Of a DNA stretch of 64,000 nt, positions 270-61,688 are shown one piece after another. Under the pieces are notes generated by a model. It did not search any database. It was not told the DNA's origin and saw nothing but the letters and a program-made list of their open reading frames with translations. This DNA is from Moniliella sp. 'wahieum' (lineage: Eukaryota). Location of the stretch: NCBI GenBank assembly GCA_003971905.1, contig RSEE01000016.1, forward strand, positions 1 to 64,000, written 5' to 3'. Every line of letters begins with the position of its first letter. Position 1 is the first letter of the stretch. The translations under genes were made by a program, and so were the position numbers.

Positions 270-628
270 TGCTGGCTCCTCTGTTTCGTCTTGGTCCCCG
301 CACCCTGCATCCCACATCTCAGACCTCGCCTGGCCGGATTATACCACTCGATCCAACGTTCAACGTTGGACCTTCCCCCCACACCCATTTCTTTTTCTGG
401 TCTGATTTCCGCTTGATCGCTATAGCACCCCCTCCTGACACATTTCCAAAAGGGGTTTGCCGAGAGTCAGACAGCTCTTCCTCTCACCTATAGCCTAAAG
501 CCCCTCTATCCGGCCTAGAAAAATAGTCCCCCCGCTGTCTCAGTGTCTCTGACAGTGTAAAGCAAACAGGGAATGAAGGATGTATACATGTCGTCGATCG
601 TAGCACCATTCGAAAGGAAATGCGGGGG

Positions 629-1955
629 CTACTGGTAGAACTCCAACCGCCCTGCGTCTGCCTTCTTGACTGTCTGCTTCCACGCCTCTTCGAAATCGGC
701 GGGAAGAATGACATAGCGGTTTTTGCGTACTGCTTGCAGGCCAGCCGCTTGGCAGATCGATGCAATGTCCGCCGCGGAGATACGATCAGGTCGACCCACA
801 AAGTCCTCCAAATCCACATCAGGCGCCAAATTCATTTTGCCCGTAATAGTTTGGAAGATCAATCGCCGCTCCCGACGCGAAGGGTTGGGGAATTCAATTT
901 TCCGATCGAGTCGACCGGGACGAAGAAGGGCTGGGTCGAGCGTATCTGCACGGTTGGTGGCCATGATCACCTTGACATTGGCGTCTTGGTCAAACCCATC
1001 CATCTGGTTCAACAACTCCAACAAGATCCGCTGTACTTCCCGATCTGCGCCCGTTTGCGCATCAAACGTTTTGTGCAATCGCATCAATCTCGTCGATGAA
1101 GATAATGGCTGGCGCATTCTCCCTAGCCAATCGGAACACGTCGCGCACCATGCGGGGTCCCTCACCGAGGTACTTCTGGACAAATTCCGAACCATTCACC
1201 CGAATAAATGAAGCCGTTGTCGCATTGCCACGGCCCGCACCAGCATCGTCTTGCCTGTCCCTGGCGGGCCGTAGAGCAGTACACCCCGCGGAGGGTCAAT
1301 CCCAATGCGTTTGTATAGGTCAAACTCAGTCAACGGCAGCTCAACCGCCTCGCGAATCTCTTGCTTCTGAACGTCCAGCCCACCCACATCATTGTACGTT
1401 TCGGTGGGCTTGTCATGCTCTCCCAGCATGGCAATCGATGAATCAGCCTCGGGCGGGAGAACATCGACCAGGGAATTGCTGTGGCGGTGCAGGGCGACGC
1501 TAGACGACGGCTTCAGCAGTTCGCGGTCGATAGTAGAGAGAATGCGCACGACATAGTTGGAGCCGGTAGTGCTGCCCACAATCCCCGTGTTCTCGTCAAT
1601 CGCTTCGAGAACTGGCCAATGACTAAAGGAACACTCTGGATGCGCTTCACCTCTTCCTGGGCACGGATCAGTTCGCGCTTGAGATTGCGCTGCTCGTCTT
1701 TCTGAATGATAAAGAGGTAGAGAGGGTAAGTCACCATCCGGAGCGAAAGTGGCAGATACAATGGAGCCCACAACGTACCACACAGTCCTCCATCGTGCTG
1801 AGAAAGTCGAGGTGGCGTTGGAGCTTCTTGTACCGCAGGAAGGTGTCTTCCTCCTGGGCTATTTCTTGGTGCAGCGCCTGCTTTTCAGCCAGAGCGTCGG
1901 TGATGGTAGGCTCAACCGCCTGAAGAGTCGTTGTCTCAATCCCGAGTTCCTCCAT
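629..1955 (-). CDS. RPT3: 26S proteasome AAA-ATPase regulatory subunit Rpt3 (6B); one intron at ~1703-1778 and several apparent indel errors
   Basis: [31 protein letters not shown], Walker [58 protein letters not shown], spread over several frames. Confidence 0.95.
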
Positions 1956-2574
1956 TGTCGCTGATATGCCGTTGGGAGGCGACCAGATGAGGCGTAGGAG
2001 TGATGGTGGAGGCCGCCAGGCCAGCGTGGGACCAACAGCTGACGACGCGTCCCACCGGGTGGCATCATATTACGTCAGGCGACCGGCCTCTGATCGATCT
2101 GACCCTTGCGACCCACGGGTGCTGCAGACGGAATCGGGTGGCATTCCGCTGAAATGGGTGACTCATGCGTGATGGGTGGTGGTGCAGTAGAACACAAATC
2201 ACATCACCTGCCCAGTGTCACATATATCACATGGCACGTGCTCTGCAGGCGATGGGATATGACATGATCACACCTGGCTGAACAGAAGCTGGCCCTGTCG
2301 GATGTCCTGCCGGCCGTGCTTGAGCCTGAAACCCAGGGTCGATAATCGATAAGGGCTTTGTGGCGGTGTTAGCGCTTGGCGCGTCAAGCTCCAAGGTTCG
2401 TCTGAGCGTTGAACTCCAACGTATTCGCCGCCCAGTGCCCCCGTCAAATCCCCTCCCCAGGCCATGCAACGAGCCGCCTCCCTCACACATCCGTCGGGCC
2501 AGATGCCTGTTATCTCCCGCATGCAACGCCGCCCCCCGCCCGACGCCATCCCCCCTCCTCCTTGCCGCCTGCGC

Positions 2575-58800: not shown

Positions 58801-61085
58801 GGCGTAGGCTGATTTTGGCTGGAACCGTGCAGGGGGATCTATTGCTGTGGTCAGTATGGAACCCTCAGGAGCCTGGGTTGCTCAACAAGTTTAACGTCTT
58901 GGATGCGGCGGTGGTACGGATCGTGCCCCTTCCTCCCTCCCTCCCCCAGAAGGGTATGACATGGCCAATGCCCTCCATGATTTGGTTGCGTGCGTCAGCG
59001 CCGACGGCATGGTGGCCTTGGTGCAGATTGAGACATTCCAAGTGAGCCTGCTGGTTCCAGGCCGTGGGAGCCCATTGTCTGTCATCGCAGTTCAAGGGTT
59101 CACTCTTATGCTCATCTATGCTGATGAGTCGGCTCGGATTTGGGACTTGCGCACGCAGGAGCTACGGCAATGTGTCCCTGCCGCACGGGCGTATGCGCTC
59201 TTGGCTCACCCCGAGGTGAGCACCCTCGCGATGCCTGGCCCAGCGCTACCGCAAGCCTTAGCAAAAGAGAACTCCGTCAGCCCACAACCTGTTCGCTGGA
59301 CCGTTCACGATCTGCGTGACGACGCCCGTGGCACCAGCCTCAAGATCAAGACGGGAATTCTTACTGTCCCGGATCGTCTACCCCCCATGGGGGTTCTTCC
59401 CGCTTTGGAAGCGGACCTGCGCAAGGCTATTGATGCGGCGCACAAGGCTTTGACCAAAGCAATGCACACTCCAAACCTGGCAAACTCGGTGGGAGCAGCG
59501 CCATGTGTGGTCTTGCCTTGCCAGCAGCAAGAAAAGCTTTGGCGGTGCTTAGTCCCTTCTTGGCTGCCCTGTTACCGGCCTCAGCTGAGGTGGGAAAGGA
59601 TTTGGCTTCGGCTTTGGGCTGGCCTGAGAATAGGAAAGAGGTGATCTCTTACCTCGGCCTCCGCCTGCCCATGTCCTCGGTGTATGCCACGGTGGGTAGG
59701 CAGGCCGCGTCCTACTACCCCCCTGTGTACACGCTGCAAATGGTTGCGGTTTTGGCTATGCTGAGTACTGTGGGAAGCATTGCGGAGGTGCATCCTGATG
59801 CAATCCGAGCCCATGAATCCATTCTCCTTCGTGCCTCCGAAGGAGGAGCTTTCCATCATGGCACTATCTCCCTTTCCACGTTGGCGCCGTTTGTGTTTGA
59901 CGCCAATCCACACCTGGCCTGGGCATCCCAAACGCTATGTGATGCGGCGCTGCAGGGTGTTGCCGATGGACGAGTGGTAGAGTCTATTACTGATCTGTAT
60001 ACTTCCGCTATACGTCCTATCGACTCGGTCCCCCATCAGCCACCCCAGCGGTCAAGCAACTGGCACGCAAGCAAGGATACAACTCCACATCCTTGGACGC
60101 CCCACCAGAGTCGGCTGCCCGCCGAGACGGTGGCTCTTTTGGGCTTCTTGGCATGCCGTCGGGTGGCACTAATGTCCACCCCCATCTTACGAGACGTCTC
60201 CATCTCTGTCGAAGCCTTTCTCAACGACTCTCTTAGTTTGGGAAAGCAGTTTATTGCCATCCAACTGTGTATGGAGGGCTTTGGCATCTGGCAAAACTAC
60301 ATTGATCCTATGGAGCTACTCCGTACTCTGTTCCGTGTCGCTTGGCACGACCCGGCTTCCTCGTCCGAGGGGGCAGAGGCGCGCACGGTGCGCACGACGG
60401 CAATGGAGGTGACGCTCCGGATCGCATATGTCAACACGCCCCTCTTCATGTCGACCCTTGTTCACGACATGCTCTATCCACGCACGCTGACGGACTGGCG
60501 GGCAAGTATGGCGCTCGTTACTCATTTGGTCCAAAGCGATCCGGGTCTTTTGGTCAACGAGGTGCCCAGGCTGACCGAGGCGGTGGTTCGTGCCCTGGAC
60601 CCGCCTTCATCTCTCCTCTCTTCCGCCCCGGCCGGTCGGAAGGAAGTTCTGCGTGCCGAGGCGATCCAGATGATTGACGCTTTAGTTCGCACCTTCCCTA
60701 CTGTTACCTTTAATGAAGCGAGCCAGCGCCTGGCCGTCGGCACCCTCGAAGGAGGAGTGGTCGCCTACGATGTCCGGGCCGTATCGCGGTTGTACGTGAT
60801 TGAGGCCCACCCGTTGGGCCGGTACACCTTGTGTCCTTCTCGCCGGACGGACGGAGGCTCGTGTCCCTTGGCCTGAACGACCAAGGAGGGACGGCACGCG
60901 TGTGGAAGACAGGCACGACGCTGGCCTCGGTGTTTAGCTTGGGCTCCCTCCCGCGCCAGGGAGGGAACGATCCTCTGGGGGCGTACAAAGCTGTCCGGGT
61001 GCACGTGTCGGACCAACCATTCGAGTGGGAACCCCACTTGTCTGCGACTGGATCGGCAACCACGCCACGGCCCATCTCCAGGTAG
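55833..61085 (+). CDS. Large WD40 protein of the WDR7/WDR72 (rabconnectin-3 beta) family; frameshifted; start uncertain
   Basis: C-terminal AIQLCMEGFGIWQNYID, LTEAVVRALDP, FPTVTF..SQRLAVGTLEG..YDVR, SFSPDGRRLVS; WD-like LGCRDGSVW, YADESARIWDL. Confidence 0.7.
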
Positions 61086-61434
61086 GTGGGGTGGGACTCT
61101 CGTTCGATACAACGTGAGTGTTGATGCCTTTGCCGTCGCAGCATTCCCTCTTTTGTTCGTACTATGCATTTGCCGTCCTTAAAACTACTAAACGTTTGAC
61201 ATCATGCCCGCCTTCACGAGCTCACGACACGTATAAAAATCGGAGGTTTGTCAAATGTATCAACAGTTGTGCGGATGCGTAGGCCAGTAGTATAAAGCCT
61301 GTGTTTCTTCATGTTGCTTAGTCCACATGCACACAGCTTGCTTCATCGGTTAATCTGCCGAAGACAAGTCCTCTCAACGACGATGGAGGAGGGAACATGT
61401 GAGCGTGGTTCTTGTGACACATGTGACATGTGAT

Positions 61435-61688
61435 GAGACCTGGAGTCCTGAGGCCTGATGGTCCTCGAGGGTGATGCAATCGCACTGGTGGTGGTAGTGT
61501 GGCAGTGTGGCAACCAGCAATACCTCCAAAGGATCATCGATCATCAAGCAACGAGTCGCCATCAGGGGCTAAGCTGTGGGACAAGGAGGAAAACACAGGA
61601 GAGGGAAAACAGCGGAACTCCTAGTAGGCCTGAGGAGGAACTGAAGGGACATAGGCCAAAGCACGAGCCACCTAGCTCAACATCTTGA
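61435..61688 (+). repeat. Dispersed repeat, copy 2 (~250 bp; longer than copy 1 by short duplications)
   Basis: Colinear with 33739-33960. Confidence 0.9.

Follow-up and report, generated by a model that had tools for sequence, protein, structure and literature searches.

What process writes short tandem arrays of palindromic 7-bp units, each centred on TNA, into the non-coding DNA of a fungal genome? The question is raised by positions 1 to 64,000 of contig RSEE01000016.1 from Moniliella sp. 'wahieum' (hereafter the window, meaning this whole stretch of 64,000 nucleotides). An earlier note on this DNA had described the arrays, doubted that a single transcription factor or plain slippage could account for them, and proposed either repeated insertion and excision of a DNA transposon, with hAT and PIF/Harbinger elements as candidates, or short-range template switching. 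Herein, we conclude that the basic modules, in which two TNA triplets enclose a four-base palindromic spacer, are very likely the excision footprints of a transposon that duplicates 7 bp of its target, seals both flanks as hairpins when it leaves, and has hit the same sites again and again. Our best candidate for this agent, a CACTA/EnSpm-like family, carries CTCACTG ends.

Seven-base-pair modules and their allelic polymorphism

The modules are known here from assembled contigs. All of the units listed in the earlier note were found in the window, at or a few bases from the positions it had reported (for example, arrays from 4581, 15697, 21591, 33281, 52260 and 54980). Most of them are tandem as described; those at 18632, 21798, 4894/4916 and 61413 hold fewer than two full copies. 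The window carries 32 exact period-7 tandems, 19 of them palindromic, and the corresponding values in block-wise dinucleotide shuffles were 4.3 and 0.3. Palindromic tandems numbered 16 of 99, 6 of 48, 0 of 6 and 0 of 9 at periods 5, 6, 8 and 9, and among periods 5 to 12 a palindromic excess of this size was seen at period 7 only. The TNA centre was present in 115 of 121 palindromic 7-mer arrays from 464 kb of the assembly. Assembly-wide, TGAAGCTTGAAGCT occurred 3,249 times and its reversed control pattern not once, and an ANT-centred 14-mer occurred 16 times versus 1,135 for its TNA-centred reverse. All 16 four-base palindromes are represented among the spacers, and local clustering of one spacer is weak.

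A non-redundant sample of 724 kb contained 525 arrays, 447 of which had flank support. Since this sample scales to both assembly-wide 14-mer counts within 4%, the assembly should hold roughly 43,000-50,000 arrays. The module density was about 0.6 per kb, and modules made up 0.6% of the sequence. The earlier impression that conserved exons are free of them was borne out: none of 48 window modules lay inside blocks conserved with homeologues of ~80% identity (19% of the window). In addition, 85 of 540 modules in the 724 kb fell within stop-free frames of at least 200 amino acids, which span 55% of the sequence. Modules avoid coding DNA.

The allelic sample totalled 213 kb. The indel spectrum comes from allelic alignments over 148 kb and counts only indels whose flanks were clean, with matches at 12 or more of 14 positions to either side; the rest were dropped. 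The 7-bp polymorphism that the earlier note had suggested looking for was evident as a peak of 40 indels at 7 bp, compared with 14, 17, 11 and 9 at 5, 6, 8 and 9 bp. Twenty of the 40 obey one rule, by which ab-TNA-xy becomes ab-TNA-xy-y'x'-TNA-xy or the mirror form. Thirteen fit the rule and cannot be plain duplications; in these the new unit is not an exact copy of its neighbour, as slippage would make it. Slippage is compatible with 10 of the 40, and three are plain duplications only. With ANT, CNG or GNC as the centre, none of the 40 indels fitted. Between the window and its own allele, two of four seven-base and one of two nine-base indels obey the rule.

The direction of change was read from a solo long terminal repeat (LTR) at 61431-61682 in the window. 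Four insertions lie in this LTR and the region of its 5-bp duplication. The two 7-bp modules inside the LTR are lacking in nine other LTR copies and in the allele, and a 7-bp and a 9-bp module part the LTR from its own 5-bp duplication; on these grounds the modules are insertions. It follows from this polarity that the palindromic heptamer is a product and that the target need not be palindromic. Thus, the palindromic 7-mer of the earlier note stands as the outcome of the event and fails as its target, which is any ab-TNA-xy. A second solo LTR of the same family lies at 33735-33953; both have 5-bp duplications, and the assembly contains at least 26 more copies.

The features of the window are listed below (strand given where one was assigned; the allele is contig C4; P, palindromic nucleotides).

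354-367: two-copy heptamer array (TCA with ACGT); identical in the allele
2339-2352: TAA-TCGA-TAA module, common to the allele
4581-4595: TGA-AGCT-TGA module; identical in the allele
4911-4922: TGA-CTAG-TGA module; substitutions in the allele
13315-13335: 9-bp form (full 7-bp duplication plus 2 P nucleotides), then 7-bp form
15697-15749: TGA-AGCT array of 3.7 exact copies plus decayed ones
18630-18650: TGA-CGCG-TGA module
21591-21617: TCA-AGCT array of 3.9 copies; shorter array with the opposite centre base in the allele
21651-21672: chain in 7-bp register, TCGA/TCGA then AGCT
21721-21734: TGA-TCGA-TGA module
21798-21810: TGA-AGCT-TGA module
33281-33304: TGA-CATG array of 3.4 copies; identical in the allele
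33412-33426: TGA-CATG module, absent in the allele
33964-33991: mixed chain on one TCA, left event ACGT and right event TCGA; ~21 bp lacking in the allele
39854-39869: TGA-CATG array
40082-40095: TCA-GTAC array
46105-46127: 9-bp form, then 7-bp form (ACGT)
49794-49809: TGA-CATG array
51754-51767: TCA-TCGA-TCA module
52254-52317: cluster of CGCG, CATG and ACGT modules; different composition in the allele
52388-52402: TGA-CGCG array
52622-52664: decayed GCGC/ACGT chain in 7-bp register
54980-55000: TGA-CCGG array of 3 copies; identical in the allele
61410-61430, plus strand: the solo LTR's left 5-bp duplication at 61410-61414, followed by 9-bp and 7-bp rule-bound insertions that part it from the start of the LTR; of these, the 9-bp insertion is lacking in the allele
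61431-61682, minus strand: solo LTR, outgroup for insertion polarity (alignment of 10 copies)
61447-61460: 7-bp insertion CC-TGA-GG-CC-TGA-TG, no plain duplication; lacking in nine other LTR copies and the allele
61532-61545: 7-bp insertion TCA-TCGA-TCA; lacking in nine other LTR copies and the allele
62397-62408: TGA-GGCC-TGA module, past the range of the earlier note

At two allelic sites (window 21591-21617 versus C4, and L016:6380-6420 versus L014), a TCA-centred array faces a TGA-centred array with the same spacer, as if inverted.

The assembly is 69.5 Mb in size and contains homeologues (73-86% identity) and allelic contigs (91-97%). The porin gene region is present in at least six copies of 73-94% identity, as allelic pairs and homeologous sets. 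By these copies the genome appears to be hybrid or polyploid, and insertions near genes would be masked in it. The host is a smut-related basidiomycete; the best named matches of its HAS1 helicase are from Ustilaginomycotina (~76% identity). The window and its allele differ by 363 1-bp indels in 65 kb, pointing to an unpolished long-read assembly, and reading frames are unreliable because such indels are abundant. The porin gene (48485-49359) and other conserved genes appear frameshifted, and 1-bp indels dominate the allelic differences.

Anatomy of the proposed scar and growth of arrays

Scar forms were counted in the 724-kb sample on both strands, with non-palindromic targets. Sorted by how many far-side bases are duplicated (0, 1, 2 or 3), the forms numbered 362, 65, 39 and 1 (controls, 4-15, 1-7, 3-7 and 0-1). 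A palindrome centre 2 nt from TNA with two inverted bases was found in 718 cases versus 6-23 in controls. The odd-centred forms were not enriched (122 and 31 versus 96-421 and 5-23 in controls). The centre base stayed the same in 718 cases and was altered in 81, a retention that rules out an origin by inverted duplication. On these counts the scar reads as a 7-bp duplication whose inner end is extended by two P nucleotides. Spacers derived from the terminal inverted repeats (TIRs) of the candidate element, CT and AG, were not enriched between full 7-bp duplications.

The 8-bp products provided a view of the far end. A terminal overlap was found in 48 of 65 (35% expected), and in 37 of these 48 it runs to a second base that requires a P base from the far end, versus 24 of 86 in the 7-bp class (p 2e-12, both-strand counts). 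Three or four splits are possible at 29 of 62 loci, that is, an overlap of 2-3 nt. Given these overlaps, we infer that both flanks were hairpins and that they were opened to 4-nt overhangs. Hairpin opening at +3 with T overlap was rejected; it predicted an excess of T-flanked 8-bp forms, and 4 of 65 were seen.

The mechanism that we propose has five steps. First, the element inserts at ab-TNA-xy and duplicates the 7 bp, as surviving copies show. Second, excision would seal both flanks as blunt hairpins at the exact element boundary, in the manner of RAG coding ends, a step suggested by the shape of the scar. Third, a host nuclease would open the hairpins 2 nt past the tip and leave the 4-nt palindromic overhangs xy-y'x' and b'a'-ab. 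Fourth, end joining would usually retain one whole overhang and trim the other to the T, giving the +7-bp product or its mirror; more rarely, one or two more bases would be kept (8 or 9 bp), via overhang overlap where available. This step is modelled on the product spectrum. Finally, re-hits on either TNA extend the scar in 7-bp register into palindromic heptamer arrays, as mixed chains show; slippage may add length to the longest arrays.

The arrays bear on this last step. Among chains with two spacers, 18 of 25 read as a left and a right event on one TNA, the order expected of a double hit (33973 is an example in the window). Neighbouring spacers were the same or mixed in a ratio of 93:25, near the 3:1 predicted by re-hits alone, and thus slippage is not needed for short arrays. 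A neighbour was found for 118 of 618 spacers. This is, by a rough estimate, about twice the value for uniform targeting, a difference that points to hot regions or local re-insertion.

Flank hairpins are formed by hAT, Transib, Muta1 and RAG (PMC5499845), and coding-end hairpins are opened by Artemis mainly at +2 (PMC2175297). The scars appear to carry three features of RAG-type footprints: a duplicated target at the junction, an even P palindrome at the duplication end, and hairpins on both flanks. They resemble the coding joints made in V(D)J recombination by RAG and Artemis in the even-centred break palindrome, the two P nucleotides, the predicted 4-nt overhang and the short-overlap joining (PMC2175297). 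In contrast to those joints, each scar is flanked by a duplicated 7-bp target, P bases are almost always retained at one of the ends, and the scars are inherited and spread over the whole genome.

Neither transposon group named in the earlier note fits. The scars share the proposed flank hairpins, P nucleotides and microhomology with hAT elements, and the hAT7 elements of rust fungi also have a 7-bp duplication (PMC12730594). However, Ac/Ds footprints in yeasts are odd-centred palindromes, centred on the complement of the base beside the element, whereas the scars are even-centred (PMC5873905). PIF/Harbinger elements share the TNA-centred target, but their duplication is the 3-bp TNA/TWA itself, while here it reaches two bases past TNA on each side. 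Genome searches for the hAT domain PF05699 gave no match, which is a weak negative as control genomes gave none either, and searches for Harbinger PF13359 and KDZ PF18758 gave none, also weak negatives. For the host enzymes, a search for DNA-PKcs (PF20500) found no match in the genome, again a weak negative. One match to the DRMBL family (SNM1/Pso2/Artemis) was found (G000:C175:29408-29614), a candidate hairpin opener.

The CTCACTG elements

The element that duplicates such a target was sought by its end pattern, which gave 21 matches. The extended end sequence was present in 14, and all 14 have TNA 5 to 3 bases from the end. The seven matches lacking the extended end were set aside; TNA was present in one of them. 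Further ends brought the independent target sites to 13, each of them with an in-register TNA (TNA frequency, 0.037). The termini are CTCACTG..CAGTGAG. An exact 7-bp nnTNAnn duplication flanks five of six paired copies (GATGATG, GTTGATG twice, CATCAAC and GATCATG), and the 8-mers at the duplication were unmatched in the four copies checked. At one site (C20), the target is single in all three empty LTR copies, and the filled copy has an adjoining 10-bp deletion. Together with the rule-bound allelic insertions carrying P nucleotides, this TIR family with a matching duplication upholds the insertion and hairpin-type excision proposed in the earlier note.

The four full copies are 96-98% identical, and therefore the family was still mobile in the period over which the allelic differences arose. 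Each of the four long copies has 28-39 CCGT words in 450 bp at one end. In tblastn, the element frames gave weak matches to the Tnp2-like proteins P0150 (E 1e-12) and P0127 (E 5e-7), the latter with PF02992. A C(2)C motif, an H(3)H motif and, downstream, an E follow one another in order, in different frames of the broken copies. No relatives of the element frame were found in protein or metagenome searches.

Short subterminal repeats are a CACTA feature, and the element has them. It further resembles the CMCT / CACTA-EnSpm group in its C(2)C and H(3)H motifs, in a CACTG core close to the terminus and, by weak matches, in a putative Tnp2-like transposase. In PMC12730594, that group is defined by C(2)C and H(3-4)H before the last E. 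The element differs from it in two respects. Its ends are CT..AG with CACTG from base 3, whereas most members have CA..TG, and its duplication is 7 bp with a TNA centre, whereas theirs is 2-5 bp; fungal EnSpm-like elements have duplications of 2-3 bp (PMC12810828). For this reason it is not filed as EnSpm. By the definition in PMC12730594, it works like a CMCT member without these two features.

Several observations concern the surroundings of the copies. Four TNA-palindrome modules lie inside the transposon and are common to its copies (L088, L098, L099 and L100); the scarring process is thus older than the spread of this subfamily. Newer copies have landed on, or next to, older scars or element ends (L100:203-1251, L089), with a nested copy at C23 and a miniature inverted-repeat transposable element in an LTR at C20. 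In the C8 end (L103:192-194), the allele of the counted site C23 (L100:203), two additional bases separate the target from the retained element end. They equal the final two target bases in reverse complement, as P nucleotides would, but they also repeat the first two bases of the element end.

Two other Tnp2-like genes with PF02992 were found, one in both alleles (L085/L087 4181-5982) and one at L086 3262-6872, and no ends could be defined for either. The shared gene differs between alleles by 73 non-synonymous versus 20 synonymous codon changes, evenly across codon positions. This neutral decay ruled out the gene as a domesticated agent.

Evidence against excision, and other origins

A number of results weigh against excision by this family. 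Neither the rule nor a duplication accounts exactly for 17 of the 40 allelic 7-bp indels, several of them being near-fits. Regarding the element, the flanks of the paired copy C11 are unmatched, and no Pfam family was found in three element frames, which are broken. The target preference also differs. An A/T on both sides of TNA was found at 10 of 13 surviving-copy sites versus 71 of 362 scars (10 of 11 sites in the tested set, p 1e-6 versus scars), and the targets of recent allelic scars are mostly G/C-flanked. No second family with CTCACTG ends at G/C-flanked targets was found among 90 matches, and a blind scan of 881 kb for TIRs with duplications found LTRs and arrays only. About six long copies stand against the tens of thousands of scars, and a comparison of the flanks of five elements with the available loci found none in which one allele holds the element and the other its own scar. 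Regarding the joint, known footprints vary more and are less one-sided than this product. T beside TNA is halved on the trimmed side (43 of 362; 724 kb) and not on the hairpin-kept side, both overhangs were retained in two cases only, and TNA-TNA occurred in only 2 of 88 three-base indels. The near-universal trimming of one end to the T is not explained by excision as we propose it.

Given that the A/T flanks of the CTCACTG copies differ from those of the scars, this subfamily may be one of several makers. We regard it as likely that the CTCACTG lineage is a main maker of the scars, and other related families probably contributed. With somewhat less confidence, we favour the view that the CACTA-related lineage is a distinct one, marked by CT-extended ends and a 7-bp nnTNAnn duplication, which would excise exactly like RAG through blunt flank hairpins with an Artemis-like opening at +2 and of which a handful of copies would have left over 40,000 neutral scars.

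The large excess of scars over surviving copies, by thousands, would also be expected if a transposase-derived or other host nuclease, either a domesticated enzyme or one engaged in abortive target capture, cut ab-TNA-xy and left the same scar with no resident element. The unlike flanks of scars and copies and the high uniformity of the product are in keeping with this, and domesticated hairpin-forming transposases such as Kat1 exist (PMC4763223). We nevertheless consider it improbable because the full 7-bp duplication carrying P bases and the overlaps for which both ends must have P bases require a duplicated target and two hairpins, the direct outcome of insertion followed by excision, and because the single Tnp2-like gene common to both alleles decays neutrally.

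Short-range template switching during replication, the other process put forward in the earlier note, holds up only in part. A polymerase that copied two or three bases of the opposite strand and returned five bases upstream can describe the 7-bp product, and the two allelic sites with opposite centre bases look like local inversions. This process gives no reason for TNA alone (none of the 40 indels fits another centre), for an offset fixed at 2 nt on either side, for so sharp a boundary at 7 bp, or for the match with a transposon's duplication. A zero-loop fold-back is unable to prime itself, which also counts against it, and we hold template switching to be very improbable.

We then have the possibility of selected cis-regulatory sites multiplied by ordinary slippage. 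The modules are non-coding, and some contain known motifs, ACGCGT among them. All 16 spacers occur, however, and the modules carry substitutions at a rate like that of their flanks (115/2,765 versus 654/17,100, p 0.40). Of 305 module observations across alleles, 141 were identical, 106 were present with point changes and 58 had no counterpart in the other allele; between haplotypes, 19% of intact modules differ. Module gain or loss between alleles amounts to about one per 100 substitutions. Because the substitution rate equals that of the flanks and 58 of 305 are missing, we read the scars as neutral by-products and not as conserved regulatory sites. In addition, the 13 indels that are no plain duplication are beyond the reach of slippage. 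These results agree with the earlier doubt about a single transcription factor or plain slippage, and the cis-regulatory explanation is largely refuted and hardly credible. An assembly or basecalling artefact, for which the many 1-bp indels between alleles might speak, has next to no probability, as the 141 identical modules come from two separately assembled haplotypes, the 106 others present there differ by point changes, four transposon copies share the same internal modules, and errors would not write reverse-complement bases at TNA only.

Excision of a transposon with a 7-bp duplication thus remains our preferred explanation. Among the open-access papers listed in our searches, Repbase being outside that scope, we found no description of genome-wide scars of this kind or of a 7-bp CACTA-like family. 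To our knowledge, the excision chemistry of the CACTA-like group is not settled biochemically. From the scar spectrum one could read, in vivo, where a CACTA-like enzyme cuts, how the hairpins are opened and how the ends are joined, and the enzyme would be tied to RAG/Transib chemistry. Reporter assays usually yield excision footprints in small numbers; here they would be a main small-indel class of a genome. Past transposition could be read from scars where almost no copies survive, and re-hits alone could build palindromic tandem repeats beside genes. If true, this would be an unrecognised route by which tandem repeats are seeded, and a fossil record of every past jump.

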